A stretch of DNA of 64,000 nt, from NCBI GenBank assembly GCA_002245135.1, contig NGBS01000004.1, forward strand, positions 124,001 through 188,000, written 5' to 3'. The notes under the pieces were generated by a model. That model saw nothing but the letters and a program-made list of their open reading frames with translations. It had not been told where the DNA came from and did not search any database. Both the position numbers and the translations under genes were made by a program. Shown here one piece after another: positions 28,643 to 62,100 of the stretch. The DNA comes from Proteromonas lacertae. Its lineage: Eukaryota. Position 1 is the stretch's first letter. Every line of letters begins with the position of its first letter.

Positions 28643-28824
28643 TTCATATTATTATTATGACTTATATTTTTTCTAAATGTGTTTTGCTACCTAGTCATAC
28701 TACTTATTAACTTATCTTTTATTGCTCTAAGAAATATTGTTACCTTATTTTCTTCAGTATGTTATGTTTCTTTTATAGCATCTAATAAATAAGCGATTAC
28801 TATACGTTTTTTTAAAACCATCCT

Positions 28825-33300: not shown

Positions 33301-35551
33301 TAACATATAGAATAATTGTTCCATTGGATTATAATCTGTAATCCAATCGAAACTTACTTTAGAATTATATGTAAATCTTTCCATCGCTAAAGGTCCATGA
33401 GATATCTTCATATTCTTTGAGAATATCTATAATATAATATATAAAACAATAAAATATACTCTAATTGTCATTGGAACTGGATATATATTATTATCTTTTA
33501 AATACGACACAATTACAAACTTTGATGGTTTATCAATGATTTGCCTATTTCCCCATACTTTCATCATATAATAAGTTCGATTCTATTACACCATTAGTAA
33601 TAATATGTTAATATACCATTGATGAAGGTTCATCCATTAGTCTTTTACAATTTTCACCTGTAACATCTAAGAAGTATATTCTATTAAGGAGAAAATTTAA
33701 AAATCATTTATAGAAAGATATATCATTAAAAACATAGATATTTGAATCACTTTCATCTTTACTATGCCTTTCAAACTCAAAGTATACTTCTCCTACTCCT
33801 TTTGTTGGAGTTACTTCAAATGTATATTGATGTCTGAAATATACTTGTCTTGGAACTAGTCCTGGTAATAAAATGTGATGACTTCCATTAAATGGGTATA
33901 TTTCTTCATGATATGCTATATTTCTATTGAAATTATAATATTTAGAAAAATACATTCCATTACATTCAGGTAATACATCTTTCAACAAAAACCAAGAAGC
34001 ATTTACACTACAAAAACAATCTGCTGATTCTCGATTATATCCAATATACTATAACAATAATTCAATTATATAATATCAATACTTTTTGATGTTTTTCATC
34101 CCATATATTATTATCAATATACCAAGGTCCTTTAATGCCATGAGCATTCCCAACTAGAATCCATTTCTCTTTGTTATATTCTCGATACTAATAAAAGAAT
34201 AGAATGAATATGATAACATACAGCTAAAATAGCATATGCATGATGATGAACAATTGGTAATTTTCCTTGATCACAGACTGAAAGTGTTGATATTATATGT
34301 CCATTACTATATAAAGTGTATAATTCATTCCATATTTTATCTAAATTATTCAACAATTCTTTTGAACTATATGATCTAGTAGCACAACCAGTAAAACAGG
34401 ATAATTCACAACTGAAATAAGAACCTGTATAAAACACTTTCATTATTGCTTTTTCTAATAAACTAACCCACAATTCAGTCTGCAATAATGATTGAGCTAT
34501 AATAACACCAGAACACTCTTTACTTGTCAATTGATAATCATCGACTAGTACACTTCTAAAACATCCATTGATATATATTTTAATAACATACTTACCATAA
34601 GGATTGTAAATTGGCCAACCATCTTTGTTTTGAGGATATATCATATTCTTCAAATAGGTTGTTCCATATAATGCCATATGATTAGTGATTGCCATTACTG
34701 GTGCAATATTAGAACAATCTCCCATTTCCATTTGTTTTACTGATGGTGATAAAAAGTCTCTTACTACTTCAGGAATAACATCATAAAACTCATTTGGTCT
34801 TCTCCATACACCTTTTCCTACTAAGTCTTTTATTTTGTTATAATCAAAATCATCTCTGAAATATTCTTCATCTGTATCAAATCTTGTATTATATAATTCA
34901 TACTCACTAAATGGATTAACTGCAACTTCACCAATTCTTGAAGAATCTTTCAATATTTTGGTTTGTTCATTTTCTTCATCAGGTTTGAAAATAAAGTTAT
35001 CTTCTTTTGGATAAGATTTTAACAACTGGTCAATATCATTTAAATACTTCTTTTTATCTTCTTTTTCTTTTGATGACAATTTTTCTGAAGATTTAAATAA
35101 TGCTTTGGCATTATCTAACAGTCTTCTTGCTTCCGTATTTTTACCAACAGATCTTAAAGTTTGAGCGTATTCTAAACAGAATTTACCCTTCAGATAGTTT
35201 ATTGGAGTAGCGAATGTTTTAATCGAAGACATTGGGTAACGATACTAAATTTAGACCATTTAAAATACCTGATTAAATTGTTCATTCGCTTTATCATCAA
35301 TTAACTGTATCATCTTTAATATTTCTGAAATGCGCTTAATATTTCTTTCATAGCTATAGATCAATATAAATATGAGTTTACTTTGAGATTTTAGGAGAGG
35401 AAGTCAAAACATAATAACCATATAAAGCCTGGAAGTATAAACTTCTGGCATATAACCACAACTTCTCATTTTCTTTCTCTTTACCCTAAAGAATCCTTTA
35501 ATAGATCAGAAATACTTTTTTAATAAGCTGTTCTACATCCTGTATTTTCAT
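30371..35551 (-). CDS. Calpain-7/PalB-like cysteine protease: MIT-like N-terminus, CysPc, multiple domain-III repeats, coiled coil, PH-like C-terminus
   Basis: KQMEMGDCS (Cys), HHHAYAIL (His), LVGNAHG (Asn), YNPYGKYVIKIYINGCFRSVLVDD and ELWVSLLEKA. Repeated PQY...GxYxxVP units. About 13 introns, including two AT-AC. Confidence 0.85.
32672..32722 (-). other. U12-type AT-AC intron (51 nt) in the calpain gene
   Basis: Minus strand reads ATATCTTTTTGG...ATCCTTAATCTTTATTTTAC. Removal turns the apparent TGA stop into TGT and gives YSLVLHCIHKKVMKSYSFSMWS in frame. Confidence 0.88.
33674..33721 (-). other. U12-type AT-AC intron (48 nt) in the calpain gene
   Basis: Minus strand reads ATATCTTTCT...TTTTCTCCTTAATAGAATATAC. 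Removal gives YVFND|FLDVTGENCKRL in frame, whereas using the internal AG leads to a stop. Confidence 0.88.
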
Positions 35552-35649
35552 CAAATTCTCATTTAACAGTTATATAAAACGGTAAATTTTATAATAAAAA
35601 AAACAATCTACACCAACAAATAGCATTATTTACTAAATAAAACAAATAA

Positions 35650-38600
35650 TTATTTCAATAATATGTTCTGATAAATCCAGTAGCACTGATAATCAACATA
35701 ATTCTTCAAAAAAAATATACATTCTGGATTTATGTTTATGTTTGTGAAACTATCTTTGCTAACAATTGCTTCAAATATCTTTACTGATTTAGTACTATCA
35801 TATTTCAAGTATAAAAACATGTTATTACAAGGCAATACAATCATCATAGAATTACTAAAATCAACTATGACTTCCTTATATAAATCATGAGTCGATAAAT
35901 CTCTTAAAAATAATTGACTTTGTATTGCAGTATATACCTCAGGGACATCGATAATTGCATTTAAAGGAATTTTATAACTCCTTTCAAAAATCCAATCCTA
36001 CATTGAAATATAAAAAAAGCAATACGAATTTATCAGTGTTTCTATTAAGAATCAAATCATTCCATTTATTCAAATAAGATTGTTGCAACTCTTCTAAGCG
36101 GCTGTTGAGATTAGAGGTAATAATTGAAGGATAATCTTGCAGACTGGCATTTTCGTACAATACAATTCCACCAATTTCACTAACATCATCTTTACCAGTT
36201 TTATAATATCCAATGAAATGAAAACGTTCATAATTTGTAATATTACATGATTTGTATAGAATATATGATAAATTTGGATATTGATTTAATATATAACTGG
36301 AATTCAAACCAAATAGTTGAAGATACTATAAATAAACATAATTAATAATACTTCAGGTTTCTTAAAATCATAATTCATTATACGATAATTAGAATGAACA
36401 ATATTGTCTGGATATTTGTCTCTTAAGAACAAAATAAGATTATAACAATCGTTCAAACTATAATAATGTATAAATAAATGATAATAGTTTACTTTTTGGT
36501 TTGTTCAGAAATCAATTCTACTGCCATGCTATATATACTCTCATATATCAGTTTTTCAATGTTAAATGAATAGAAGAAGTCAATAGCAATGTTTGGATTA
36601 AATATATTAGTTGGTACATATCCATTATTATAATAGTAATACTGACATATAAATCGATTTTCTTTATCTTTGATTTGTAAGTAAATGAAATTAGATGAAA
36701 CTTTTTCTTTCAAAACTCTATATTATATATAAGTGTAAAAGGTATAACTATACATATAAACTCCATCAATACTATCCCTTTCTGTTCTAAACTGCAAATT
36801 ATCTGTGTTTAAGAATAATATTTCTTGCAATTCCTGTTTAATAATAATAATAATAATAATATAGATATAAATACAGTTCTACATCTCTTCACTTCATCAA
36901 TAAAACGGCTAGAATGAAACAATTCAATAATAATCTTTGATTTAAACACATTATTCTTCTGAATTACAAAATTTAAAGGTAACATTTTCTCTCCTATAAA
37001 AGTTGAATATGATTGAAATATTGTAGCATAATTCGGCAAAGAAAAACTAGAGTTATGATCATCCATCAATTGATTTAAGAATTTCTCATAACGTTCTCTT
37101 AATTCAATACAATCATTTACTTTTTTCATATATTTTGCTTTCTTTTCTATTAATCCACTCTCATCACTACCTAAATCTCGTAAATTTATATCCAGCGGAT
37201 ATGGTAATGATAAATTATAATATAATATGTTATGAGAATAATGAATGTTAATTGATGTGTTGTGTTTAAAAGGTTTATTTAACTGCAATAATGATAAAGT
37301 GTTTGACTTTTGAATATTATCTATAAACGACTGTAAACCAAATATAACAGAAGATTTCATTTTGGATATTAATTTGGATGGTAATTCATATGAATAATAC
37401 GAACTAATTCTATTATTAGAACAAATATAAAAACACTTTTGATCAATAGAATAATACCAAATTTGACAATTTCTCACTAAATTCTTCATGGAAGTAATAT
37501 GATTTAAAACTATTGAATTATTATCATACTCTTCGTTCAGTGCTTGTTGTGATTTAAATGATATCCATTTACTATTATCATCTGTAGATAATGAAAAGAA
37601 TGATTTATATTTCTTATCATTTTCACTAATTGATGAGAATTTATTGTAACAACACCAAAATGGGATATTTATATCTTCATGTCTAACTGTATAGTAATTG
37701 GAATTATTCAGAATATCATATATGATAGAAGGAGGATAGTTATAGATACAACTCGTATTATAATTCATAAATGAAATAATTACACTGCTTATATTTGATG
37801 CTACACATTGCTTTAAATTGTATATTACATTTTTGGGTATTTCAGAGTATGATTTTAATTCAAATCTATATAGATAATGTGTAGAATCAGAATAAAGTGA
37901 CTTATGAATAATATATATTGTACTATAATCTGTTAATATATAATATTTGGATGATATTTTCTGATAATTCTCTATGTCTGATGTATTTATTTTTGCTACT
38001 CCAATATTGATCCATTCATCTAAATCATTCTCTGATCTTGGAGTTAATGTATTAATGTTAGAATATTCATCTTCTATTCTTTCTTCCTTCAATTCATTTT
38101 CATCATTCTTTAGCTCTTTTATGCATAAATGATCACTTTCTATCTTCAGTATTTTCTTATCATAATCATCAATGTTATTAATATAGAAATTAGGAATAAA
38201 ATAGAGTGTTTTACTATCAGTATATGATGAAAAACTGACAAAATGATCTTTTTCCATTTCAATTATTTCTTCATTTCTCATCTTGTTTATGTAGTTAGTG
38301 AGTTGGAAGAGATAAGAATGACTTTTTATGATTCTAGTAACATTTTGAATTGTTTTATCAGATTGTTCATTATTTACAAATGTGTAGATATTAAACTGTA
38401 AACAATTGTCTAACATATTCAATAGAATATAACAAGGAGTATTTCCACTTTCAGAATATCTAATTATAAAAATAGTACTTATATATATACATATAAACAA
38501 CTGGATCTTCATTGATTAATTTGATATTATCATCATTTAGAATTGTATTACTTATCTTCAATATACTTCCATTTCCATTATTACTCAAAGAAACACCAAC

Positions 38601-41600
38601 AACAGTTCTATTTTGAAATGAAAATTCATTGTTCTATAAAATTATAATATATATAAAGCAAAATATACAGGATTAAAACAACAAGATGGTAAATAGAAAT
38701 TCTTCATTTCATTATTTATATATCTTCTACACAAGTCAATGATATATTCTTTAATTTCATGAAACATATGAGAAGTTTCATAATTAAATTCCATTGGAAA
38801 TGAAAGAATGATTATCTTCTTACCTCTTCTTTTCAATTGAACATACAAGAAATAAGAAGGAATATTATCAACAATATCTTTACTATTTCTGTTTATATAT
38901 TGATATATAGAAGTATCTGCTGATGTAAAATAATAAGGATTAGTTGCAGTGATTAAATAATCACCAAATGTATTCCAAAATCCATCCTAAATAAAGATTA
39001 TGATTAAAATTACATACTTGGTTTACTCCAAAATCAGGTACTTCTTCTATACTATCTGTAATACAGTAAGGAGTGTATAAATTGTTAATATATGTTTTAA
39101 TATGACCATAATATTCTTTAACATTAGCTAAATGTTCATAAATATAACAATGTCTCAAAACTTCTACTGATAAGAATGTAACAACATCATTTGCTATTCT
39201 ACTACATATTTCACTTCCCTTTTTGTTGAAATACTCAAAATCTAATTCATCATTTTTGATTTTATCTTTCAAAACTCCACTAATTTTATATTGAAAAGGG
39301 AAATATCCTTTTATATCAATTGAATACCTGTAATTACTTCTATTATGGATAATATATTGGAAATCCTTTTCATTAATATGATTCATTATTGTCTCTTTAA
39401 AATTGGATAGAAAATCATTAACAGGGATCTATTTAAGTAAATAAATCATTATATAAATATACAGTGAAATATTTTTCTGAATTGCTATCTCCTTCTTCTT
39501 TTATAATAATCAAAATTAACACTGGTAATTCATTAGATAATCTTTTCATCTTTTCTTCTACAGTCTCTTTTCTCTCCATATTATCTGTGCTTTTACTAAA
39601 AACCCTTGTAATTGGTCTTAATGACTCTAATTCATCATTTGAATAGGGTCTCAACCAATAATTTTGACTTACTGCAAATGTTTGATTGACAAACTTTTCA
39701 AGCTTTTTCTCAAGCTGTATTGTGAAAAAGTCTAGATTATCAGTATTCATTCTTAATAACTCACAAAACATTGTAATATCTATTCTTTTCAACGTTTTTG
39801 AATATAAATATTGTTTATATCTTGTAAAAGTATTTTCACTTATATCTTCACCAAGTTTAACGAAATGAAAGAATGTTTTAACAGCTGAATAATTCAATAT
39901 GTTATTAACATCACATCTTATATCATTCAGCTTATTATTTGATATTCCTTCAGAGTTAAATGATGGTAAAAACAGTCTTGTAAGAGTATCATTTTCTGAT
40001 ATTTTTAATGATAATCTTTTAGGGTTGTATAAATGAACATTAAAATGAAAAGAGTCTATTGTGTGTTATATAAATAAATATACTTTGATGTATTGGGGAT
40101 AATGATAATACCATATTCTGTTTATGTTTTTTATCTTCCATTAGGAATACAACAAATCCACTAACATTCTTTGTTTTAAATTCATATCCATAAGTCAAAC
40201 TATGAGCTTGACAATACAGTTTAAAATATTTAACCAGATTATCATAATTATATTTAATATACATACTCTGAGCATCAGCTATTAAATATATATATATATA
40301 TATATAATATTATAATTAAATACGATTTGTTAGATTTTCAATATTATTAGCTATTGAATGTTGAACTAATATCTCCATATTATTGAATAAATTATTCATA
40401 TTGCAACATTTATTAGAATGACATTCATGGTTAGATTTACTACTCAAAGTATGATAATATAACATCAACAAATTATCTGCGAAATAACATGAATTATATA
40501 ATATTTCATTTACTTTATAATCAGCCAATTCATCAATTTTATGATGATTATGATCAAGAAATAACATCTGATTATCTACCCATAGAGATACATAAATACA
40601 TCCATCTTGAACTGACATTGTATAGAATATATGACAATCAAATTGCTTTTGATTATGCAATTGAGATGAATTATTTGGAGTAGGAGTTGAAGTAGGAGTT
40701 GGTGTAGATAAAGAATCTTCTGGAGAATCAAATTGATGTGGATATAATTTCAAACATTTGTACAATATAAAATAGTCACTTTGATTGGATTTTATTTCGA
40801 GGAAATCAGCTGTAACATGCTGTTCAATAATGAACTTTGCCACTTCATTCTCTTCTACTTGATAAGTCCAAGTTTTCTTTGTTAATGTTGGAATTTTGTC
40901 ATTTACTGAAACCCACATTTGGCCATATATCTTTTGAAACATTAAGAATTCCGATGGTACAAATGAGTAATGGTCTTTGAGGTTTTGTTTTATTTCCTCA
41001 AGATAAGAATTATTCTTTTGTGGAAATGAATTGAAATGAACAAAATGAACTGAAGTATCTATATCTTCTACTGTAATATATATTAATAGTTCAGATTTCA
41101 CATGTTTAATGATTTTATAATAAAAACAATAATCTGAACCATAACATCTTTCATATCCAATTTTTTCTAATAACTATTTTAATATAGAAATATATAGATA
41201 TTATTTATACTGAACCAATTGATGGAACTTTACTATGAAGTTCTTGACAACAATAATCTTCTTTCTATAATAAATAATAATATAAAAGTAAATATAAAAA
41301 ATACAAAAGAATACAAATCCAATAATTCAGTAAATAGATAAGGTGAAGTTCTAATAATCTCATGATAATTCAAAACTTTTGTATCAAATGATTTGATTGG
41401 ATCAATTATTGATTGATATACTATTGGAATACACTCATATTGACAAGGTAATAACGAGATTTCCATTGTAATTTGACAATTTAATTGATCATTAGTTGAT
41501 ATTGTATATAATACAATAATTGTCTCATCATAATTATATCTCAGTTGTATTACAGAATAATTCAATCTTTCTATATATGAGATAATATCAAATCCTTCTC

Positions 41601-42636
41601 TTACTCTCTGTGATATATATATTCTAATATTCTTATTTGCTGAATAAGTTGTAACTTCATACAACTGAGATTTTGGGTTTATATAATACTTACTAATTGT
41701 TACGTATTTCCTATATACATTAATTGGAATTGACTTTGCTTCTGTTACTGCATAACTTCCTGTATTTAGACATATGCTTTTGATTATATCATCGCATTTC
41801 AATATAAAATTATCAACATTGATTGTTAAAAAACATAATGTTATATCATTAGTATTGATTGATTGAATTAGATGGTTATATTGCTGATTATTCCCAAAAT
41901 TATAATATGTATTATCTAACAGAATAATTAAAATTGGATTTGCTGTATTATCTAAACGGTTTAATACATACATTGATTGCTTTAAACAGTAAGGAAAATT
42001 AGCTGGATTAGAATCTAAAATATATATTTTTTATATTATACAATCTTTGCTTTCAATGAGTGAATTAAACAATTCTTTCAGTGATTTTTCTATTATTGGA
42101 TGAAATTTTGAGTAAACATCATCATAATGCGGACGAAATATCAAATTGTGTAAGATACACATACAATTCTTGTCATTATAAAAACATAATATAGATAATG
42201 ATATTATTGCAGGTTCTTCCCTGTTATCAAATATGGTTTCGTTAAATAACTGATTTAAAAGATCACTAGCTTTATCTAAGTATAAATCACACAATTGTTT
42301 GTTATCATAGAGTAACCCAAATTGTGAACTTATCATAATGGATAGAACGATCTTATATTCAGAATATTCAAAGTATATCCCTTTAACTATTTGAATATTC
42401 TGCATTTCTGGCACTAATGATGTAGGTGTATATGGAGATGGTGTAACTGGATTTGAATAAGTATAGGAAGAAGTTGAATCTGATCCTGGTATGTGTTTTG
42501 CATCACTGTTGAATATAAGAGGTTGATGGTTGTAACCTCTTTTGAAATTGTCAAGAAAAAATAACTGTCTTTCTTGAATACCAAATTTTGATTGATTAAA
42601 CACTTGATAGTTTAAATCTTGAGATGTCAAAGACAT
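35650..42636 (-). CDS. Large multi-exon protein, divergent SZT2-like (KICSTOR scaffold) candidate
   Basis: About 13 short introns join ten ORFs into ~2,100 aa. N-terminal YKIVLSIMISS and YISQRVREGF recall SZT2 motifs, and the size fits. Confidence 0.5.
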
Positions 42637-42753
42637 ACTAAAAATATATTCGTTTCAAAATGACTTTCTCATTTTTCTCATCAACAACAAAATATTCTTA
42701 TAAAAAAATTAAATAAATATTATATATGACATTATATTAACATCCTACGAAAA

Positions 42754-45700
42754 CTAAACATCATTATTTAAAGAAGCATCTTCAGCAATCATAGGTATAT
42801 TGTTAGCCTCATAACGGACATATTGGAATTGTTGCATTCCACTAGCAGAAGGACGAGTAAATTTACTAAAACCTGATTTATCATTAAATCTTGTTACTTC
42901 AGTCTCAATTACATTTCTTGTAGCTTCAAGTTCAGGGCTAGTTATAGGTGGAGGAGCAGGTGTAACTTTATTATCATTATTTGGAATATTCATCGGGCTT
43001 GACTTCTTTCTCCCAGTTCTACCAGATTTAGATGTAGCTTTACTATTCTGATGTAATACATAAATAGCCCAAACTTTTGGTAAAATCATAACAGAACAAA
43101 CTACAAACAATGTTGCAGAAATACCACCTAATTCTAAGAATAATAACGCATCTGGCTCTTCATAGACTAATATTTCAACAACAATAATTAACACTTCACA
43201 TGCAAACTCTGATCCAATTGATGTTGCTAAACTTCTTGATTCATTAAAATCATCTGTTAGAGTTCTAGTAGTCCAAGAGAAATAAACTCCAACACAAAGA
43301 AGAATTGTATTAACTGCAAATTCAAAAATGACATAAACAGAGTTAAAAATACATCTATTACTAACATATGTTTGAATATAAGTAGTTTTAGCTAAATATT
43401 TTGGCTCTTCATATCCTACAAATGGATCTATTAAACCCCATATTATTATAATAATTGCATGAACTAAAGCTATAATAAATATCCTCACAAATATTTGAGA
43501 ATCAGTTACTGATATTTTTTTCAATTGTTTGTTAGTCAAAAATGCATGAACTCTCCACACTTTCAATACTAAACCAGAAGTAAACATAATCACAGATTGG
43601 AATAATAAACCATACAATAATGTGCAATCTATTTCTGAAAATGTTTCAAATCTAACACATGTTGATATAATTATTGTTATAATTCCCATAACATTAATAA
43701 ATTGTAAGAAATAAGGACTTGTAAACTTGATTGTCTTTACTTTTCTATTTTTGAAAATAAAGAACATATATGATAACAAAATAGCAATGATTAATGAAAC
43801 TAATGTCAATAATGCTATTCTCAATTCTGGTCGATATTTATACATTTCTTTTGGCGTAGACATATCACATTTACCATTACCTTGTGAATTTGGAATTATT
43901 GGATCTAAGGTTGCTACAAGTTGAGGACAAACTCTGCTTAATGATCCATCATCTAATATAACTGATACAGATGTTGGTGTGATAAATGAATTATATTCTG
44001 AACCTTCCAATTTTCCAAATGGCGTTTCAAAATCTAATCTCTGTGTAGCAGTTCTTAAATAATCAAAAAGTGGCCAATCACTTCCAATATTATCATTGTT
44101 CATTCCATCTAAAGCTAATTGAACAGCTGATACAAAACCATTAAATAGAGTATAAGTATTTGCTAATGATAATGTAGCTTTTGAACTTAATCTGTTTGAT
44201 ATATACGATTGAAATGATAATGAATTTGCTACTGTATCATCATTAATGAATGGTCTCAAAATTAAGCTTCCTGATATATATGATAAATCCTGTTTAGTAA
44301 AGAAAGATTCTTGATAAAATGCTAAAATTAATTGATTTCTAACTCCTTTTAAGTCATATAAGGTGTAATAAGCAACAAATTCAACTAAATCATCATTTGC
44401 AAATGCACAAAATATTGCATAATTAGAATCGCCAATTTTCATTATATCATGAACAAAACCATCTATAAATTCATGCATTTTATCCTCATCTACATCTCCT
44501 ATTCTATATTCATATGTGGTAATATTATATTTCTTGCTAAAAGTGTTAATCATATTACCTATAGTCTTATTAAGATATGAATTCTTCATTACTTTACCAA
44601 TTATATACAGTCTATCTAAATGTGAAATATTCATATAACTATAAACAACTGGTAGTTTCTGTAGAACAGTTTGCTGTAATTGAAATACATGAGAATCACA
44701 AATATCGTTTTCTGGTAAAGATATAGATGTGAATAACATAATATCATGTTTTGCTAACTCTGGCATTACTAAATTATAAGAATATTTTGAGCTACATCCA
44801 AATAATGCTACTAAATCATCATTATGTAACAACTTTCTTATAGAACCTTCATCTTTATTCTTAATTTCTTCTCTTTTATTATTCAGGTTTACTACTTCTA
44901 GTAATAATGCATAACCATTGAATGAATTCAGTTGATTATAATCATATAATAATTGCTGAATTAGTAACACATCCATTTGTGAAATATATCTATAACTATC
45001 ACTAAAATCAGCTATATAACCAATAATTTTAGTTTTCAAGATTTCTGTTGAATTTGATTGACTAATATTACATATATATTGAGGATTATAGACAGCTTGA
45101 GCATTTGATAATGAACTATAATGATAAACATTAAACAATCTATCTTCTGTTATTCTTGCAGAAAACGTTCTTCTTGTTAATGTATTATCAATTCCTAAAT
45201 AAACTGTACCAGATGGACTTTCATATTCTCGATTATTCAATAACGCTGATACTTTATCAGGTTCAAATGATGACGTTTTCATCACAGCTGTTAGCCATAT
45301 CTTAAAACCAATATATAATCCTTCAGTTCTATAATTTGTTGTGAAAAACCCTGCTGTTCTTGTATTTAATATTGTTGGATAGTTTTTATCTGCATTTATA
45401 ATAAACTCATATTTAGTATTAACTAAACCACTGAAATAAGTTGCCATTACTGTTACATTCCTAATCATATATCTATTTTCAATGAAATCATTTTCTGTTA
45501 AGAAGAATGTATACATATCTATTCCATTACCATATCTAAAACCAATATCATATAAATCGATATAAGCTTGTAAATTATAACTTGCTAAGCAAAAAACAAT
45601 TATACAATGATCAATATCACAATAACTCTTCATAGCCAATAATTTTTTCTTATAATCATTAGCATCATAACCAATTGATTCAAAATGCAAACCAACACCT

Positions 45701-48700
45701 GAAAAAAGTGTAGTAAATTGATTTATTAAACTCATTGATATTTCACTAGAATCACCCAATAGATAAATATATCTGTCTTCATCAATTAATTCCATATACA
45801 CATTATAGACTAATGACATTTGATCAACTCCTGCAAGTATTACATTCTTTAAACAATAATTCTGAGAATAATATCCAGGATAGAAATACAACAAATTTGT
45901 ATCTTTCAAATATGGAATAGAAATAGAGAATTTCTGTGGATCATAACCTGAAAATAATACTACCACATTTGGATTATCAATGATACTTTTCAGATATTTT
46001 ATATGTAAATTATCATCACCTTTATCATCATATACTAAGGGTATTAAAAAGTAAGATAATTGTCCATTATTCGCTTCTTCAATAAGCATTAATAATGTTA
46101 ATAACATTGAAAGTGTATTTGTGTTTATTGCAGCTAAGAAAGCAACAACTGCTACTTCTAATTCATGTTTTTCATTGGATGTTACATTACATACTGTAAA
46201 ATAACTCTTCTCTCCTGAAATTGGACTTGTCTTATTAAATCCATTATCCTGTAAGTATGTAAATGGTGAATTATATTCATATCTTAATACTACTGTTGTT
46301 ATATCTTCTGAATCGACTATTCTTCTTAATTTGAAAATAGGCTTAGATCTTATATAATTATCATATCCAACATCGAAATTACCCAAATTATCAAAGTAAT
46401 GTTGCGAATATAACAATTTATTCATTTCTGACATTTTGAATGTTTTATATCTATTTATTATAGTAATCCATGCAGATAATAATCTAAATAAAGATGATGA
46501 ATAATCAGGAATAATATTAAAATCAACAATATTCTTTATTGCATCATCGATATAGCTTAAGTATAAATCTTCAGGATCTGACAGTGTTACATAGTAAAAT
46601 GGAGAAAAATCATATAGTTTATCTATCGAAATGAATGAAAAATAAGCTTTAATTAATTCTCTTAAGTTTATCCAATTGTTATTATTGTTATTTAAATAAT
46701 TCATCACCTTTTTATTTAAATCAATAGCTAAATAAAATTCTTCACCTCTGTTATATAAATCAACTAATACTTCATCTAAATAAGTTATGTTTTCAACAAT
46801 GAAAAACTGATAATTAGACATTCCATAACTAGTAAAACAATCTCTAGCCATTCTATAAGCATATTCATTTTCTTTAGATGCTAAAAACACAACTTTACCT
46901 GTATGAGCTACAGATATAAGTAACTGTGCTTCATAATTTATATATCTAGACCAGACTAAACCATGAGATATCATCTTTTTACTACATCTAAATTCCTCAT
47001 TATAATGAACAGCAAATATCATTGTGTCTTTTAAATCACTAAAAGTCTTAGATTCTTCAATCATATCTTTACACTCTGTACTTACTACCATAAATACAGC
47101 TGCAATATTTCTATAATTTGATGATTTATAATTATTAACAAAATTTTGACATGTATTAGTCGAATCAATTCCATAATAAGTTGGTGCAATTAGGTATGTA
47201 TCATTAATTATGGTATATTCTGAGTTCAATAACTTCAAAAAATAATAGAACTGAACTTTCAATGATTTATCTAATGAAGTATCATAAATTAACTGTATGA
47301 TAATTTGTCTTGATTGTAGAGTAGTCTGTTTATGATCCTTGTGAGATACAATACAAATACTTGCATTAGGATATGCCAAAATCCATGTTTCAGGTTTAAG
47401 TGAAAACTTATGTTCAACTATATAATCTATTTCATTATTATATATATAACCTAATCTGAATGATTTATATAAATAATTATTGTCAGCTATATTTGTTCTT
47501 CCAAAGGGAGTATCAATATCAGTATATTGTAAATAAGTAAAGATTTCAATTGGATCAAAAGAATTACTCAACGTTATTCCATCATGAAGTATTTTTACAG
47601 CTGTATATGAATTTGCCATTACATTTGAACTTCTATTAATTGCTAAATATTGATATAAAGATTTTTTCAAATTCTCATTAACAACTATTTTATCATGGTA
47701 ATTATAATCACTTATAAAATACAAATAATTTGTATATTTCTTATCTAATTGTAATAAATCAATCTCCTTAGCCAATAATATATAAACTTTCTTTGTTGCT
47801 GGTTCAGTTGGTGAATTATAAACAGTATAAAGGAATTTTTCCATTGAATATGTTTCTATACCAGGTATAAAAACCAAGGCACAATGATCATTACTATACT
47901 TTACAATAGTAGAAAATAGATCTTTAGTATTATTGAAATATAGTTTGAAAATATCATTACCAAATCCTGATGAATTACACATATACTGTAAATTCTCTAC
48001 AATATAATTCAAATACACATATTCAGCTTCATATATTATATGCATGCAAGTATCAGTATTATTCATTTCAAAATATACTAAGAGGAATTGCAAATACTGA
48101 TTCGGGACAATACTAGTGAAAAGAACATGTTCATCACAAATTGTACCACTAAGTATATATGGAACTAATAAATATTGATTATTCTCTCTTAAAGCAGGTA
48201 TTGCTTTCTTTATACATTTATTACTATCACCTCCTATTATAAATTGAATTCCCAATTCATTAAAATAATTCATTGCTTCATAACAATCTGGATTTTCTGG
48301 TGCATATAATTCATAACCTATTGTATATCCATTAATTATTTTATTTTGGAATAATTCTATAATGCCAGCTATTGCACCTTCTGCCATTGAATCTAATGAT
48401 GAATATGTACTTAAACTAGAAGCTAAAATACCAAATTTATATGTTTTAGATTGTTTACCACAATCACAAACCAATTGTTCTCTTGGTGATTTTGGGAAAT
48501 TCAAATAAAAAATAGGAGAGGCAAAATGAAGAATATATTTACCTTTACTTATATACTCATATAAATACATATAATGTGGGAATGTTGGACATTTGGTTAA
48601 TGTAATAATCTCTCCTGTTGGTAAAGGTAGTTGCATTCCATTATACTTTTTCATTGATATAAAATCTACAATATCATAGTTACTATCAGTAGCATAATGT

Positions 48701-51700
48701 AACATTTTAACAGATAAATAACTGTAATAGAAGAATGGATTTATATCCATTTCATTATTATATAAATCACTATGTAAATCTAACAACTTCAACGCTTCAT
48801 CAGATAGATTGTCTAAAGCAAATGGAGTTGCTATCATGTGAGTATATATATCACTATGTTTAATATTTGCATTTTTAAATAAACCAACTCCACCATCACT
48901 AACAATAGTAAAATGGATTTGACTTTTACACTGCTCAGCTAAAGCATTAAATAACTTATTATATTCGAAATTATCAAGAGCATTTATCAATACAGAATCA
49001 TCAGTGATTAATTCGCATATTCTGCTTGCTATTGGGTTGAAATCTATTGAATCTCTAGAAACAACTTTGAATTTAAATGATATCTTTGCATGCTTATATT
49101 CTAATTCAGCAGTTATAGCTTCAACTAATTTATGTGAATAAACACTGTCATTATATATAATTCCATATGATCCACTATTATTATTATTTATCAAATATGA
49201 AACTAAAGTCAAAAGAAAAGACGACATAGTCCAATGGAATGAAAAAATGTAATTATTAGCTGTTCTATCTTCAACATTTGTTCCAATATAAAACAATACT
49301 TTTTTCAATGATTTTAATTTTTCAGCAAAGAACATTATAACTGGTTCTCCTAATCCAATTATCATTTTAGATTTCTTAAACCATTCATCATTAACAAAAT
49401 CGCCTGATTCGAAATCATAATGAAATAATCTGTAATATGGTTTTATTATTTTCCCACTAATACCTTCATGCTTATTATTAATCTCATCAATTGCAATATA
49501 AACACCAGATTCTAAAGCAACTCTTACATTAACATCTTCTATTGAACAAAACACAGCAATATTATAATAGTCTTTTATTTCTATTACAGGATTATCTGGA
49601 TCTTCATAGTTACATATTTTATCAAAAATAATATTCTCCTGCAATTCAGAACTATTTCTGTCATATGTGTATATAGTAGTTAAATTATAATACGAATGTC
49701 TGTACAATATATTGAAAGCAGCAGATATAACAAATTCTTTATTAATCGAACAATGACCAGATGGTAAATCATATGTATCAATCAAATTCTTTCTGATTGG
49801 TTCAACTTCAAATGTATTATAACGATTTGTAACATCATAAAAAGCAACAATACTATTGGCTAATCCACTTTCTAAAAATGTAACTTGTGTTTGAATTGAA
49901 TAATAATAATTATAAATATTTGCCAACACTTTACTACTTTCAGTTGATCTTGAATAATCATTTGTTACTATACCATATGTATTATCGTATATTTCATTCT
50001 TATTTCCAATAAAATTCTCAGTAAATGAAAAGTAAATCTTGTATTTACTCCTTTTGTTTTTGTTAATATATTTATTATAAACTTCAATAAACAATTTATG
50101 CTCAACAGGAATAGTGATAACTAAAATACTACCTCCATTTGGCAATTTAATCAAAACATCTTTCATAAACTGATTATAAAACGCTTCAGTATTATTAGAT
50201 TCATATTTGTATAACTCTATTGAATAAGCAACTGTTGCTGATTCTATTGTATCTGCTATTTTAACAGATTGTTTTGAATATAACAAAACACAATCTTCTC
50301 TTGAACTCCATATTGGTGATTTTAAAATACCATTTACTAACGTTTCTATTGAAAATCCATTCACAACATATGAACTACAACCATCTGCATAAATTGGAAT
50401 ACCAAATGACCATAATAAAAACTTCTTTTTCTCTTCCACTAATTTCATTAATTTCAGTGTTTTTTCATCGCTTATAAATGTAAATACATGTTTTATATTA
50501 TGATTAATGTAATATTGAACTATATCTTCTATAGATGTAGTTTCTTCATCCTGTAATAATGGAACATAATAAACAGCACATCTACCAATTTCATACAAAT
50601 ATTCAGATAAAAAATGAATTAATCTTTTCATTTGGTAAGATATTCTATTATATCTTGGACTTGTTGATACTATTAGACCAATATTTTCAACTGCATCTTT
50701 TCTATCAAACAAACGAGAAGCTTCATCTGTACACATGTGAGTATCATTCACCATGATTAAAGGATTCTGTGGAATTGCTTTATCTGTTAATATTTTTATT
50801 TTTGTATCACCATCATTCATTCTAAACACATACAATGGATATTGAAGTTGATTAGATAATGAGAATTTTAAATCACCAATTACAGAATCTAATACCATCA
50901 ACTGATGAATAATATAATCTTCTGGAAGTTCACTTCCTAATGATTTTACACCCATGTAACTATAAGCTTTAAATATATTACTCATTACTACAACATCATA
51001 AATTGGATACTTCGAAAAAACATCATAATATGGTAATAATTTCATCATATTCTGTTTTACACTATCTAATTCATGAACGGGCAAAACTGTAACCACAGTG
51101 TATGTGTAATTGCTATAACCATCTTCATCTAATAGATATGAAGTTCTTGCATTTACATTAACAATTACATACTTCTTTATATCACTAAACTGTTTAAATA
51201 AAGTACTGTTATGTATTTTCACTAACTCTTCATCATTAAGATTCAAATAAACAACTAAACTATCAATAATACTACTTTCTTTATTAATCAAATCTTGTAA
51301 TATATCATCAACACTCATTCGTCGAGTAAAATATATAAGGGGAGTAATTGGATCAGCACAATATTTTTCAATAGTTCCTTTAAAATATTCAGCAACATTG
51401 TCATCATTAGGAATAGTACTTGAAACATATGCAAAATAATTAAATCCTTTTTGAAAGAAATCAAATAATGTTGTAGTAAAAAACTGTTTGGTTAAACAAC
51501 CAAAATGATAAACATGTGGATTACAGTCATTCCCATCCCAAGGACTTATGGAATAAAACATTCCTTTAAACTCCTCTAAAACAGGATTCAATGAATTTAA
51601 TATCGATTTATTATGATATCCTATAACAAATCCAATTCTATGTTCTTCGAAATAATGTCGAACAATCTCTATGGAGTTGTTTAAATTAGTACTTTCCAAA

Positions 51701-54074
51701 CTAACTGGAACACTTTCATATTCTATATCAGTAGACTTTTCTTCAGCATATGCAGTAATAAACATGGAATATAATGCATCATAATAAGGATGTTTATCAT
51801 TATTTACTAACGATATTATATGATATACATCTTTATTCACTATATATCCGTTATTTGCATTCTCACTATTATATTCACATATATCAATTTGTTTATTAGT
51901 GGCTAAAAATGGTTTTTGAGATCTAGTTAATGATACATCCGATATTTTCCATATAGCTCCACTATTAGTAGAAGGATCAATTGTTACAGCTGATTTTAAT
52001 GTATAAATTGAATATAATTGTTTATTAAACCTAACACGAATATCAGAACCTTGTGAATATGAAAATGATGAAGGTAATATCTGAAATTCTAATAACGAAC
52101 TTGATTGGATACTTTTATAAAAATTCAAAATCATTGACAATGCAATATAACCTTGAGATTCTATCTGATGATAATATTGATATAAAAAGGAAGTTCTCCA
52201 TGCTGTGGGTTGGTATAAATGGAATTGAACTGTTGAATAACCTTCCCATTTAATACCAGATTTACTTGCTGATAAATAATCTTGATAACTAAAATCTATC
52301 ATAAAAACATTATCAGATGTGTATGATTTAGTTTCATAATATTTCATGAAATTGTTCTTATTAATATCAGCCATCAGTGTGATTATAGTTAGATTCTTAT
52401 CTAATATTTCTAATTCATATTTATCAAGTCTTTGTTTATAAAAATTAACATCGTTACTCTCATCAACATATATAATTTCTCTACAATTCTTTCCATAACT
52501 TCTACAACTATATTCACATGCTGATTTACCATATTCACCATTTAAACACACTAATACAAAACCTCTTTTTAGTTTTGGTGTAACATAATAACTTATCTGT
52601 GACATTGGTGTTAATGATACATGAAATACATGAGGATTACAATACTGTCCTGTCTCATAACCAATTGCAAATATATATGGAGATAAAACTTTATTTTCTA
52701 ATATTCTACTCAACAATTTCTTTCCATAATACATTATCACTATTTCTATATTTTTCGATATTATATCTTCATATTGTGCATCTATTGTATCACCAACTGC
52801 TTTATATAATAACATCTTTGCATCAAAATGATGTGAATTCTGCAATAATGTGTCTAACGATTGTAATAAACTGTTAAAGAAATCAGGATAACTTTCTCCT
52901 TCAATATATCCTATTCTTAGAACTGGCATTTCTTCTATAAAACCTACTTTACATGTATATAAATCAAATTCCTTTAAATCATAAAATGGTTCTCCTTGTA
53001 TATTGGTCAATAACAATGTAAAATGTGCAAAATTACCACTCAATACTTGTGCTATATATACATTACGTTGCAAATTTAAATTGTATTGAAGTATAATTTT
53101 ACCATATGAATAAATCAACTCCAAATCATCAATGTAAGGTATTAGATAAACCTCACCAAGTGTTTCATATTCTGTAGCTTCATTTAACTTTCTAATTAAT
53201 TCAAGAAACAATATTCTATATAAATAAATAAATAAATAATATATATACGTAGAATATTCTGCATCTGTTATTACTTCACTTGGATTAGATGTCAATACAT
53301 CATTTAAACCTAGATTATCGATAAACGAAGATGTTGCTGGATTATCAAAGAAATAACCAGACATTACATATATATTCTCCATTATAGCATTATTAGCTTT
53401 AAGGAAACGTTCATCTACATTTGCTACACACAACATTACCTTATGTTTTAAATAAATATTACTTGATGAATAAGCTTTGATTGAATTTAGAAGTATTGCA
53501 TCATCACCATAAAAATTTACAATAAAAATCCTTTCAGACACTTCTAAAGATGTAAAAAGCTCTGTAAATCCAACTTCATTTGTAGGAAATTTATGAGAAA
53601 TTACAGTGAATGATAATCTCTCTGCTAAATTTGCTGTTACATTATATTTGCATGAATTTTTCTCTGCCAAGATCAAGACTTTATGGAAACCATCTTGAAA
53701 AAATGTGATTAAAGCTATAATATAAAATTTATATAAATACTTTGTTTTATAGGTTGCTGTATAAGACCACCTCTAACAATATTTGTAGTACAACCCATAC
53801 AAGCAGAAAAGGATGGATAGAAGTATATAGATTTATCATCATAAAACGGGTCTAATGGGGATCCTCTTTCACTATCTGAATATATTGACGTTAACTCTAA
53901 AGGTTGATGATGATTAAAATAGAAAATTTCATTTCTAAGCTTTGCATTACTGATGTACGACTTTAGAATCACATTTGGGGATGAATCTGTGTAAATATCT
54001 GAGTAAATATATATTTTGGGGGTAAAACTCCAAACTGATTTAAATATAATAAGAAAAATCAAAAAATAACACAT
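42754..54074 (-). CDS. Class C (GABA-B-like, 7tm_3) GPCR-like receptor with ~9 tandem type-1 periplasmic-binding domains
   Basis: Signal peptide MCYFLIFLIIFKSVWS. The 7TM region has IKFTSPYFL, LVLKVWRVHAFL, IWGLIDP and DDFNESRSLATSI. Repeats carry YFYPGYYSQNYCLKNVILAG and ESPSGTVYL-type motifs. Two short introns. Upstream ATG 54134 is an alternative start. Confidence 0.85.
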
Positions 54075-56164: not shown

Positions 56165-59100
56165 CTATTCTGTGCAACATAGCAATGCAACACCTCTTAT
56201 AATCCAATGAACTGGTTTATAATCTCTACTTGGGAAAGTTACATTAAAAATCAGATATTTATCTGTTCTTTGTGGATATTTATAACATGGACATTCATAA
56301 CCACCATAAGGACCATAATCTCCAGCTTTGTTCTTCTTCTGTGCACTTGTCATAGCTGATACTCTTAATATTGGTAATGGATGGAATAACTGTTTAGGAA
56401 TTGATTCAACTAATGTACCATCAGACTTATTCCAAGCAGCACCATCCAAATATAATCCATAAACCAAAACACCTTCTTTTGGTTGAGATTTGATCCTATC
56501 TTTATCAAGATATTCTGTTACTTCACTATAATATGATATATCATCCAAAGACCATTTATCTTCAGTATGAGCTCTAGTAATATCCTGTCTCATTGCTGTT
56601 AAGAAACCTTGAGGATTAAAGAATCCAGTTAACCAGAAACAGTTTGGTTGCCCTCTTTCCAACCAATTTCTTAATTGTGAATCACGATCTATTAAACCAG
56701 TATACCATATACCTAATGTGGGTGATATCCAAGCAATTTCACTACCAGTTAAATCATATATCCATGTCTTTGGAGGTTTTGCATCATAGATTGAATTCAA
56801 TGCATCTATCAAATCAGGAGTCATTACAACTTCACCTTTTAATGCTTGGATTAATAATGACAATGTCTTATGGACGATTTCTAATACATTTTCCATTCTT
56901 TGCACTTCTTGGTATAAGAATATATTTAATGGTTCACCTAAACCACCTAATTTATCAATACTTGTCATATAGAAATCTTCATCATAGAATTTGGGTAACT
57001 TCTCTAGCAATTCTTCAGCTTTATCTTTCACTATATCTTCTCTTGTTCTACCACTACCTGTATTACTTTCTTTAGGCAATGTTTCTGATACTGTAGCAAT
57101 CATTTGATGTACTTCTTTAGTTCTAAATGTAAGTGAAGCATTAGGATGTAATCCAAATATTTCTGGTGAATCATCATCTGGATATTTCTGTATAAATTGT
57201 CTATACACTTCAATATCATTCTCATCAGGAATTGAATACACAAAATCATTCGGCATTTTATTCACCATATGTGATGGATTGAATGAGAAATTGGGTGCTA
57301 ACGTTGGAGGACCTACCCATTCACTAACATATGCATTAAACAGTCTTCTATCCATTTCATCAGTGATTCTTCCACCATATTGCACTTCACTTATCATATA
57401 TCTCAGTGTTTGCCATGATATTGGACCAGCATCCATGTGTTTCTCTAAGAAGGTTATACAAGCTGATAAATCAGTATTATTATATTCATATGGAATATTC
57501 CAACCTAATGAACCATATTTACGTCTTTCTTGTACGATTGAGTGAATGAAACATAATGAATATAATAATATTCTCCATTGATTATTATCTTGTCGATCTA
57601 AGATATCTTGATCAACGATTATTGTATAAGAACGATACATACCAGCTTTCAATCCTTTTGGTGGTTCATTAGTTAATTTTACTGACATATGTAATAAACC
57701 GATTGGGAAATTATTATCAGGTTCAGCGGTTATAAACAATCTAAACTCTTCATTGATTGGTTCTTCTCTTCTTTCAAAGGTACTTTCTAGAGATTCCATA
57801 TATTTCAAATCCAAGTGACAGTTCTGTAATAATACCCAATTACCATTTACCATTGATTCTTCAATTGTTTTTTGTGCTATTACATCTTGACCTTCACCCA
57901 TAGAAACACAAGTAATATCCTTCTTTCTCTTCTTTGCTAATTGTTCAATACTTTCAGTTGGATCTGCACCAGCTGATAATAAGCAAATTGCTGGTGTTTT
58001 TTCAGTCATATCTTCAAATAGTGTAACTATTGAATCATTACAAGGTTCTATATATTTTGGACCTAATACTGGAATAACATTTCCATCCTTTTGTACAATA
58101 GATTCTATTGATTTTATAACTTCTTGCAAGTTTAATATCAGTCTATCTTCTCTTAATGTTCTAATAATCATCATTCTTCTGAATAAACCAATCTCTTTTT
58201 GATTCTCAAATTGCATTTCATACATTGGAACTGGCATTTTCTCAGGTTCATCACTTTCATACCATACTTTCCATGATTGTTCATCTCTTGCCATATCTTC
58301 TACCAATAAATTATAAAAATGACAATTCTCTGATAAGTAAATTACATTTAGCCAGACACTATCACTCATCCAATTGAATGGTTTTCTTTTTACTGTATTT
58401 ATATCCAAAGATGCACCTCCTTTTAATAATGTCATTACATCCTGTTGATTGATAATCTCAGCTGCTGTTAATATCTTTAATAATACACACAATAAGAAAC
58501 TTAATTTATCTTGTACATATAAACCACGATTAATATATCTATAAGTAATATAAGTCAATGTAGAGATAATATTAGTGACTCTTTGACCTGTTAATACTGC
58601 CTTTGGAGCTGTAATCATAGATCTTTCGAATAAACCTAAGAATTGTCCTAATGATGTTTGATACATTGTTGTAATCATTGAAACATCACAAATACTGAAA
58701 TACAATACACTTCCTCTTGTAGCTACTGGTCTATAATGTTCTCTCTTTTCATTAACTGTAGCTTTGGTTGCTGCAGCTGCAACTAACTTCTCACTCACTT
58801 CTGCAGCTTTACGTTTTGTATCTGCTAAGACAGTGATTAATTCTTCATCATCTAATAGATTACCTTCATTATCAGTCAAACGTTGTAATAAAGCAGCATC
58901 TAATTGTAATAATGCTTTCGTATTGTTTGCTACTGAAGCTAATACGGATTTTAATTGTTCTTCTAATGATTGTTGTTCTTGTTGAATAACACGACCTAGT
59001 AATTGTTCTTCTAAACCTTTCATTGTTACAGTAAAATCGACTAATGTTGTTCTTGCCTGTAATTCTGGTGTAAATAATGGATTTGGTAATCTGGTGAATA

Positions 59101-62100
59101 TATATAACATAAATGATTTATCCATTTCTACCATCTTACTACCTAACATAATATATTCAGTCTTTGCTTTTTTAATAATCTCTTTTTCTAATACTGGATC
59201 TAATAATGGATCTACTTCATGTTCTACACCAGTAATAATCAAAGTTTTACCTTCTTCCATAGCAAATTCCAATTGATCTCTGAATTTAGGATGAGATAAT
59301 GTAGTAGAACCATAATCAGGCATATTATTAGCTTCTAAAGCTCGAATCCAATTCAAACCTTGTCCTTGTGGATCTATTAATAATGGGAATCTTGTTGTTC
59401 TTGACATTTTGACTAATATACCATTCTGTATAGAAAGTGAATCTGTTGGTAAACCTTGAACTGCCCATTCACCTGTTGTACCAGCATCTACTAAAAATGA
59501 ATTCAACTCAAAATCATCAGATTTTGGAATTCCTCTTTGTGCTATATCAGCTAAGAATATATCTCTTCTTAATATATCTCTATATTGTTGATTAAACGGT
59601 CCACAATAAGATAAGAATGCACAAGCTAATGCTACATCACCAATTAATGATTTCTTCTTAGAGGCAAAGTGTTTGGAATCTTCAGTCCAACGTACTTGTT
59701 CTCCTGATAATCCTTGAATCAATGCAGTTGCTTTTTCCATTCTTCTTTTTGTCGATTTTGCATTTTCTTCAATTCTTGTTTTCTCGTTGATTTTATCTTG
59801 GAAATCAGCTTGTAATTTATCTAGTACTTCTTTACATTCAGCTAATCTTGATTCAGCTTTGTTTAATTCCTTTTGAGCTTGATCTAATTTTGCTTCTGCT
59901 AATCTCAATGTTTCTAATTTTGGTTTTACTATCTTTGAAGCATCATGATATTGAGCCATTGCTCTAACCCATGCACATAAACCTTCTGCTGCTTTTGATG
60001 CATTTCTTGCTACAGCTGGTGTAAATTGTTCTAAATTCAAATAAGGTGATAATAATTCTATTGTTTCTTCATTGATTAAATCTTTCTTAAACTCACAGAA
60101 TTGGAATAATTTGGTTAAGAACTTTGCATCAGCCAACATTCCCTTTTGTGCCATATTGTATGAATCTTTCAAGAAATCAATTAATGTCTTTTCTTTACCA
60201 ATACCTAATGCAACTTGTGTTGGTTCAACTCTATTCAAAGGCTCCATTTCTAATATAATCACACAATCAAACACAATCTTGATAATATCAGCTGGTTTTG
60301 GTAATTTCTTTAATTCTACTAAATCTGATTGTTTAATGGATCTTACAGCTGCATCCGCTGCATCTAAATATGGTTTTGCATTTGCTAAATCTTCAGCTGC
60401 TGCATCTTTCTCCACTTGAATTGCATTTCTTTCAGCTTCTAATTTATCTCTTATTTCTTCTACTACATCACTCTCTTTCTTTGCTTCTAATGATTTGGCT
60501 TGTAAATTACCTAACATCTCACTAGCAGCTTGTTCAGCTTGTAATAACTCCTTTTCTTTATCAGCTAATTCGATTTTCATCTTTTCTACATCTTTTGCAC
60601 CATCTGCTAATTTGGTCAAACCTAATTGAACTCTCTTTTCATTATCTTGAATCTCATGTAATTTCTCACTATATATCTTCATATAATTATCTAAGAATGA
60701 TAAGAATGATCTTGGTGTTTGATAAACTTGTCTTCTCATTTGATTGAAGTATTTATCACATGTTAAAACAACTTCGTTATGAACATATCCCATATGTTTC
60801 ATTAAATTACCTTTCACTTCATCTGTTGCTTCAATATTGAACGATGTTAAGAAACCTCTTGATACATTAATCAAAGCTTCTTCTGGCCATGGTAAGAACC
60901 AATCAATTGTTGTACCTGTGATTAAACCTGGGAATTTTCTAGCTCTTTCTGCAAACATTCTAGACATTGGTGACATACAAATAACTAAATGTAAATTACG
61001 TCTAACTCTTTCAATGAAATATTTTGCTAAGTTTTCTAATGTATCAACGAAATCAGGATTTTCTTTCAATGCAAATGGTCTTATTTCACCAGACATCATT
61101 GTCATTTCATCTTTTGGGAATAAACCAACAATTTCACCTGTTGTTAATATATTATTAATATATTCTAAGAATCTTTCATCTTTAATCATTGTTTCTGTAA
61201 ATAAGAATGTAGATGGTTGACCTAATTGACCTGCAGCTTTATATATAATTCTCAAATCATCTAATAATGAATTGATATTATAATTCTTAGTTATTGTCAA
61301 GGAATACACTTTCTGTCTAGCAATATAAGATGCTAATTGTGTTAAAGATCTTTTACCAGAACCACCAACACCAACCAATAATAAATTACCTTTTGGACAT
61401 CCTAACACTCTACTAATTCTCATTAAATGTTTCAAAGCATCATCAAACAACACTAATCTCATTGCTTTGGATGGTCTTTCATCATTATGTTCTTTCAAGA
61501 ATTGTTCAACTCTTGTACGAATATCTTCTAACTTAGGACCTAATTCATAGATTCTGGGTGCTTCTTGTTCCAATGTTCCATCTGCATCATATACATCATC
61601 TCTTAAGAAATCAACAAAGTATGATTCATATATTCCAGTTTTACCTACCATTTCTACATATGTCTTATTATTGACTATCTTTTCTAATATTTTGTTTTGT
61701 GTCTTTAACAATGCTTGTTTATCATCAAAATTAGTCAATTTATCTGAAAACACTCTGAAACATTCATGTCTCCATAATTGTAAGAATATTTTTGGTGATG
61801 TTATTTCGTCTTTAGTTGTTCTTAATATACCTTGGAATACTTTACTTAATTCTCTCATATTGAAACTATAATGGAACTTAGAAGGTGTTGGTAATAATGT
61901 CTTATTAGCCCATTGCCATAACTGAATTGTACCATTAACAATCTTTTCAACATACTGTCCAAAATTATCTGGAAATTCATTCGTTTCTAACCATCCTCTT
62001 ATCATTTCACCATAAATACCATCAATCACTGGAACATCGGGTAATGTCATATTAAACATATAAAATCTACCTTTTAATCTCTCAGGAATATCATTCTTAC

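Follow-up and report, generated by a model that had tools for sequence, protein, structure and literature searches.

A class C receptor-like gene with nine tandem UrtA-type units in Proteromonas lacertae

The receptor gene and its product

A gene for a giant class C receptor-like protein lies on the minus strand of contig NGBS01000004.1 of Proteromonas lacertae (assembly GCA_002245135.1), within a stretch of 64,000 nucleotides (contig positions 124,001 to 188,000) that is called the window below and whose coordinates are used throughout. The gene extends from 54074 to 42754 in three exons, and its spliced product of 3,753 amino acids consists of a signal-like start, nine units of about 375 amino acids related to periplasmic binding proteins, a class C seven-transmembrane domain (7TM) and a short tail. 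Textbook class C G protein-coupled receptors (GPCRs) have one flytrap domain per chain and signal by rearrangement of a dimer. A chain of nine domains raises the question of how, or whether, the distant domains reach the membrane, and would provide a natural case of several inputs per receptor.

Exon 1 (53741..54074) begins at the preferred ATG at 54074 and encodes a hydrophobic segment (54024-54074), which is a putative signal peptide, followed by the first part of the first unit (U1); an alternative in-frame ATG lies 60 nucleotides upstream, at 54134. Intron 1 (53715..53740), a putative AT-rich GT-AG intron of 26 nucleotides, was placed from the reading frame and the sequence, in that two open reading frames (ORFs) join in frame once it is removed. 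Exon 2 of the spliced model (53249..53714) is followed by intron 2 (53216..53248), which is 33 nucleotides long, GT-AG, in frame and stop-free, and exon 3 (42754..53215) then runs to a TAG stop. Intron 2 and the single long exon are supported by the relative P0003, which belongs to a cluster of six sequences, because this protein (72% identical) is colinear from the exact intron 2 acceptor to the end, with no insertion or deletion of more than two amino acids. The main open frame comprises 3,672 codons (42754-53772, minus strand) and uses the standard code, 3,673 codons of the frame holding a single stop. There are 367 and 548 stops in the two remaining frames of this strand. No second copy of the gene was found within the 64-kb window, and a Blastocystis-type polyadenylation motif occurs at chance level (7 seen versus 6.1 expected).

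The nine units follow one another, all on the minus strand, as U1 (52927..54026, amino acids 17-363), U2 (51832..52926, 364-728), U3 (50695..51831, 729-1107), U4 (49573..50694, 1108-1481), U5 (48448..49572, 1482-1856), U6 (47314..48447, 1857-2234), U7 (46159..47313, 2235-2619), U8 (45037..46158, 2620-2993) and the membrane-proximal U9 (43828..45036, 2994-3396). The original prediction, made from the letters of the DNA, had divided the ectodomain into nine units of about 370 amino acids, each closed by a cysteine-containing linker, and had named eight of the starts by strand motifs. These eight motifs do lie in one frame at a spacing of 365-385 amino acids, and the ninth start is that of U1, which begins at FTPKIYIY in the upstream exon, holds both introns and becomes visible after the 26- and 33-nucleotide introns are removed. 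The first lobe of U1 is about 25 amino acids shorter than in the other units. The linker cysteine is present in all nine units, and a second cysteine, in the motif EG.EC, in eight of nine.

The units are so diverged that generic searches recover only part of the array. At E<0.001, Pfam recognizes a periplasmic-binding domain in just four of the nine units (U5, E 7e-7; U6, Peripla_BP_5 at 55.8 bits; U8; U9), and the NCBIfam UrtA model TIGR03407 matches these same four, in five stretches and most strongly in U8 (E 4.6e-14), at scores far below its cut-off of 492.75 (best unit 52.1 bits, whole protein 81.2 bits). A Pfam WH_Lhr match in U7 (E 0.003, below cut-off) was rejected as chance, since the family profile described below spans this unit. 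Identity between units is only 8-16%, and direct comparison of unit with unit gave 11 bits at most, so that the repeat is invisible without relatives. A family profile was seeded on 30 cyanobacterial-type UrtA proteins and iterated on 31 relatives, with the window protein, P0003-P0008 and P0009 excluded; it detects all nine units, at 44.3, 29.8, 55.3, 72.5, 81.8, 160.6, 42.8, 160.8 and 133.4 bits from U1 to U9, against at most 0.7 for 270 shuffled sequences and at most -2.6 for nine reversed ones. Since the relatives had been found using U8-U9-7TM, this result is independent only for U1-U7. In the Atlas, U2-U4 match Peripla_BP_6 clusters at 0.95.

The membrane domain (43036..43827, minus strand, amino acids 3397-3660) had been predicted to be GABA-B-like, and this is borne out. 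Pfam 7tm_3 scores 94.8 bits against a cut-off of 33.5 and is matched at positions 3-251 of 251; another Pfam scan placed it at about 43075-43836 with 88 bits. The best sequence match among solved structures is GABA-B2 (E 2e-13), seven long helices lie between residues 777 and 1038 of a predicted structure of U8-U9-7TM, and hydropathy peaks are seen as well. The motifs IKFTSP, LKVWR, FNES and LPKV align with GABA-B2, and with them the class C features in intracellular loop 1, the lysine of transmembrane helix 3 (TM3), the acidic residue of TM6, the Pro-Lys of TM7 and the cysteine pair joining TM3 to the second extracellular loop; these residues and motifs presumably have the roles usual in class C receptors. 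The cytoplasmic tail (42754..43035, minus strand) has 93 amino acids, rich in Ser, Thr and Pro, plus the stop. In the comparison with P0003, the 7TM (85%) and the tail (87%) are the most conserved parts, and the units are 64-79% identical.

Every testable feature of the protein fits a class C GPCR, including a large ectodomain of type I periplasmic-binding (flytrap) domains, here in nine copies instead of one. It is not a member of the GABA-B, mGlu or UrtA families. With GABA-B (GABA-B1/B2; 6uo8, 6wiv) it shares the sequence and motifs of the 7TM and a type I domain joined to the membrane without a cysteine-rich domain: Pfam gives no match to the nine-cysteine domain NCD3G that marks the mGlu/CaSR/taste subfamily, and U9 passes into TM1 after about 15 residues. 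It differs in having nine UrtA-type domains where GABA-B has one of the ANF_receptor type (the ANF_receptor model reaches only E 0.017, in U5) and in the tail, where Pfam found no coiled-coil family.

Relatives and the age of the array

A search of 1.84 billion representative sequences with U8-U9-7TM returned 845 matches at E<=0.001, the best 150 of which were taken, and a second search with one relative, P0012, gave eight proteins. Among the 155 proteins examined, the window protein included, 33 have at least two units and 26 of these 33 also have a detectable 7TM; these 26 join two to nine units, counts that are lower bounds in the relatives since many ORF calls begin within a unit. P0012, P0165 and P0166 are nine-unit receptors. 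In the AT-rich relatives P0017-P0101, many ORF calls begin at about positions 120-165 of the first-unit profile; intron 1 of the window gene falls at position 123, and starts just past this point hint at a shared intron site. P0167 has four UrtA-like units and an ephrin-receptor-like Pfam domain, with no 7TM detected, and shows such units on a different type of protein. A scan of metagenome contigs with the 7TM confirmed none of 154 candidate stretches, and an Atlas query with U6-7TM gave no multi-unit cluster among the matches listed (728-951 amino acids), where small clusters cannot appear.

In a FastTree tree of 7TM sequences, one 33-row group (support 98) takes in 29 of the 32 unit-bearing rows, and in a quick IQ-TREE run on 42 of 146 rows, 19 of the 20 array receptors share one side of a branch with support 97. 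The 7TM of P0165 stands outside the main group in both trees, on a long branch; the array receptors need not all share one origin, and P0165 may represent a separate fusion. Capsaspora owczarzaki CAOG_05347 (P0171) is on the same side of the tree as the 19 receptors and, like the window protein, combines Peripla_BP_5/6 units, four by the family profile, with a 7tm_3 domain; it differs in that its units are fewer and rich in inserts.

The original prediction had held that the copies are highly diverged and the expansion old, and the relatives bear this out. Units cluster by their distance from the membrane and not by protein, with 12 changes among 113 units where shuffled labels gave a mean of 72. 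For 61 units from 13 receptors of the window protein's own clade there are seven slot changes, which is the minimum for eight states, against a shuffled mean of 40.3 and none of 300 shuffles as low. This slot tree, made with FastTree and having long branches, covers units other than U1 and fragments of at least 250 columns; P0012, P0165, P0166, P0167, P0171, P0043, P0045 and P0073 were left out, and P0016 was numbered with one undetected unit assumed, after a first tree had been seen. The slots thus have a fixed identity across these related receptors. Because units group by array position, the array is older than the expansion of the gene family and the diversification of these receptors, and the slots have stayed distinct since.

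Bacterial-type sensor domains on non-animal class C receptors are already known. They occur in diatoms (PMC3727952), anaerobic gut fungi (PMC5168858), Dictyostelia (PMC10445921) and chytrids (PMC3251606), and in a broader survey (PMC3971589). As here, a prokaryote-type binding domain is fused to 7tm_3, and new ectodomains have been recruited repeatedly; unlike here, the domains in the passages concerned are of the sugar, BMP, OpuAC or ANF type, on N-termini of at most 1,600-1,667 amino acids. Those passages of the five papers describe neither units of the UrtA type nor arrays as long as nine, and the words "tandem" and "UrtA" do not occur in the passages of PMC12965686. The CAOG_05347 sequence appears in a supplement to PMC3251606, section 20 of which makes no mention of tandem or UrtA-like domains; a partial precedent is possible in the domain figure of that paper (Figure 5) or in supplementary files.

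The original prediction had conceded that novelty would be lower if the same architecture were common in related protists. The family does occur in many eukaryotic assemblies and in Capsaspora, and no description of tandem UrtA-type receptors was found in the literature searched (listings and abstract openings, with most subscription journals outside it). The window gene belongs to a wider family that is apparently undescribed and that the databases hide: one of its proteins carries no label other than urea transport binding protein.

Kinship with UrtA and the urea pocket

Predicted structures place the modeled units near bacterial UrtA and AmiC, as the original prediction had proposed, rather than near animal flytraps. 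Two AlphaFold2 models cover U5-U9 and the 7TM, and both show repeated two-lobed alpha/beta units. U5-U7 has a mean predicted local distance difference test score (pLDDT) of 75.7 and a predicted template modeling score (pTM) of 0.77, with parts of U7, in its second lobe, below 50; U8-U9-7TM has a pLDDT of 85.9 and a pTM of 0.77. For a model of three units, a pTM of 0.77 is a hint that they pack in a defined way. The ten top Foldseek matches of U5-U7 are UrtA and AmiC, and GABA-B (6uo8, 6wiv) gives the top matches of U8-U9-7TM. U6 aligns with UrtA (7s6e) at Z 39.6 over 380 residues (root-mean-square deviation, rmsd, 3.0), against Z of about 31 for LivK-type proteins and about 27.5 for the GABA-B and mGlu flytraps; this comparison is chiefly of U6 and has little bearing on U5 and U7. 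With UrtA (TIGR03407; 7s6e, 7s6f, 8hic, 8tg1) and AmiC (1pea) the window protein shares the fold (Z 37-40) and the EG.EC and tail cysteines; the differences are an identity of only 10-18%, the loss of the pocket, nine copies per chain, and a eukaryotic 7TM instead of a permease. A Pfam scan of the 36 other ORFs in the window found no UrtBCDE permease partner.

The link to UrtA is closest in relatives. P0012, P0165 and P0166 have units with 49-58% identity to UrtA of cyanobacteria, and the linker between these units is the C-terminal tail of the cyanobacterial-type protein. This tail has the motif C[DN]W in 31 of 32 bacterial loci and its cysteine in 32 of 32; it is also present in 7s6e, 7s6f and 8hic, and matches to 8tg1 and AmiC stop before it. 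In the receptor family the linker cysteine is found in 134 of 138 linkers and the EG.EC cysteine in 91% of 162 eukaryotic units. Because nine other bacterial UrtA proteins have either both cysteines (three) or neither (six), a disulfide between the two is suggested, though the lineages are few.

An unrooted tree of 43 rows has its 20 eukaryotic units on one side (Shimodaira-Hasegawa-like approximate likelihood ratio support 96), adjoining 12 cyanobacterial-type rows, with 11 other bacterial rows set apart (support 99). The donor was likely of cyanobacterial type, although the eukaryotic units stand beside and not inside the cyanobacterial set. The bacterial loci came from a genome scan with P0012-derived patterns, a biased sample in which 28 of 33 loci are titled cyanobacteria. 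Two loci, L029 and L033, come from records with Acetobacteraceae in the title; L029 has exactly the same UrtA tail as Nostoc L001 and is probably mis-binned. P0168-P0170 are bacterial kinase/TPR proteins with a UrtA domain, and L035 is a 700-amino-acid frame with such a domain in Nodosilinea; in bacteria too, UrtA has been recruited into larger proteins.

Urea binding by the window protein, which the original prediction had implied, is not supported. Passages of PMC10392092 give eight conserved UrtA pocket residues (W120, S122, Y141, Q144, E146, Y190, N246, S274) and report that changes at Ser122, Gln144, Tyr190, Asn246 or Trp120 strongly reduce or abolish urea binding. Each of the nine units keeps only one or two of the eight, where 30 of 30 bacterial controls have all eight, and the window protein is for this reason very unlikely to be a urea sensor; urea binding is here a matter of ancestry, not of function. 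The other AT-rich relatives keep zero to three per unit. The full pocket is found in eight, seven and five of the nine units of P0165, P0166 and P0012, respectively, whose last units keep one, one and two residues, and in one unit of P0167. P0012, P0165 and P0166 are the best candidates for a urea-sensing GPCR; no established receptor of this kind is known to us. Their intact pockets point to the likely ligand, which makes urea sensing directly testable. A bacterial transporter component would in this family have become a eukaryotic receptor in visible steps, with near-bacterial, full-pocket units in these relatives and rebuilt pockets in the window protein.

Function of the array and neighboring genes

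Conservation of the clefts was compared at 20 positions per unit by direct alignment to P0003 and P0009. Against P0003, the clefts of U2-U8 are identical at 113 of 136 positions (83%), compared with 339 of 433 in the hydrophobic core (78%, P=0.27) and 1137 of 1628 elsewhere (70%, P=0.0008). The cleft of U9 is the least conserved, with 11 of 20 positions (55%) kept against P0003 and 4 of 20 against P0009. These two comparisons, with their uncertain register, lend modest support to working outer pockets and a non-binding proximal unit, and to this extent to the multi-ligand antenna of the original prediction, which otherwise stays conjectural.

The interpretation favored here, held with about even confidence, is a multi-ligand chemosensory class C receptor with a non-binding relay unit next to the membrane. 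A cyanobacterial-type urtA gene would have been captured and fused to a GABA-B-like 7TM, and then multiplied by head-to-tail duplication, with UrtA's own cysteine-bearing tail serving as the linker. In the receptor, presumably at the cell surface and perhaps as a dimer, each of the outer units would close on a small molecule of its own, other than urea; U9 would pass the signal on to the 7TM, for which coupling to a G protein is predicted. A broader statement, which we advance more tentatively and expect somewhat sooner to fail than to hold, is that the gene belongs to an undescribed GPCR family made of chained cyanobacterial-type UrtA units, in which P0012, P0165 and P0166 are urea receptors and the window protein has its own ligand for each slot, with up to eight inputs passing along an allosteric chain to the non-binding relay.

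Several observations weigh against the multi-ligand interpretation. Ligand binding is at most a prediction for any unit, and the pocket residues come from a profile alignment in which identity to UrtA is 10-18% and the register may be off. The cleft conservation comes from one orthologue pair, with P0003, and is not above the core control; against P0009, the clefts of U8 and U9 together keep 15 of 39 positions, no better than background. Within a slot, paralogues differ freely in their pocket strings, and drift would explain this no less than diversification would. The alignments behind the models held near-UrtA rows, and the models may lean toward UrtA as a result. U9 and the 7TM superpose poorly as a pair on full-length GABA-B (rmsd 24-27 Å), so that the activation geometry of GABA-B cannot be assumed, and we know of no precedent for a change at U2 that travels through seven domains. 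A homodimer prediction for U9, run without an alignment, scored 0.01 and carries no weight either way.

Alternatively, the array could be largely a stalk, in which only one or two units (U8 or U6, for example) bind and the rest are degenerate spacers, there to raise the sensor over the cell coat or to stabilize a dimer. This explanation is possible and we rate it as distinctly less probable than a multi-ligand receptor. It would account for the high profile scores of U6, U8 and U9 (133-161 bits) next to those of U1, U2 and U7 (30-44 bits), for the shortened lobe of U1, for the failure of cleft conservation to exceed the core control, and for the cleft of U8, which is aromatic and keeps 11 of 19 positions in P0009. 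However, the cleft of U2, a weakly scoring unit, is among the best kept (18 of 20), the slots are distinct across 13 receptors, as interchangeable spacers need not be, and in relatives the pockets are intact in most of the distal units.

It is less probable again, and on the whole unlikely, that the protein serves in adhesion, contact or solute capture, its array binding surfaces, glycans or prey or concentrating nutrients, and its 7TM signaling on force or contact or without a G protein. An ectodomain of 3,380 amino acids with 28 N-glycosylation sequons is what such a protein might have, and other genes for giant repeat surface proteins lie within the window; yet Pfam finds no adhesion-type domain, the 7TM and tail are the most conserved parts with the class C motifs kept, and the pockets of relatives are of the small-molecule kind. 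A high-avidity urea or amide receptor is very improbable: UrtA and AmiC are the closest solved relatives in both sequence and fold, TIGR03407 matches five stretches, and the idea does fit P0012, P0165 and P0166, but with one or two pocket residues per unit the window protein lacks what UrtA itself needs (PMC10392092, in the passages cited above). An artefact of assembly or prediction, by collapse of repeats or a chimera with bacterial DNA, has a negligible probability despite the frame breaks resembling indel errors in other window genes, since the frame is open for its whole length with a third-position GC of 15%, near the 18% of the neighboring dynein gene, no DNA self-match was found among the units within the gene, and the colinear relative P0003 and its cluster refute it in the main.

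The receptor gene stands in AT-rich DNA (24-32% GC), in which candidate introns are mostly 26-45 nucleotides long. At 56165-64000 (minus strand) lies the gene for an outer-arm axonemal dynein heavy chain, which makes the source a microbial eukaryote with flagella or cilia; the dynein frame is broken near 62500, with no intron signal, probably by a sequencing error of one base. A run of minus-strand ORFs with short introns (30671-42654) lies immediately downstream of the receptor gene and may be one large multi-exon gene; a calpain protease domain is encoded by the ORF at 34174-35244, and Pfam matches none of the others. A giant repeat gene at 9651-20953 (plus strand) encodes near-identical units of about 415 amino acids and C-terminal teneurin-like EGF domains; frame breaks near 13800, 15030 and 19070, which are unlike GT-AG introns and are possibly indel errors or collapsed repeats, divide it into four ORFs. 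A multi-exon region at 26329-30149 (plus strand) has FG-GAP repeats, an integrin-alpha-like feature, at 27067-27705, and an ORF at 22455-23018 (minus strand) carries an LZ3wCH domain, the type found in the meiotic Hop2/Mnd1 proteins.

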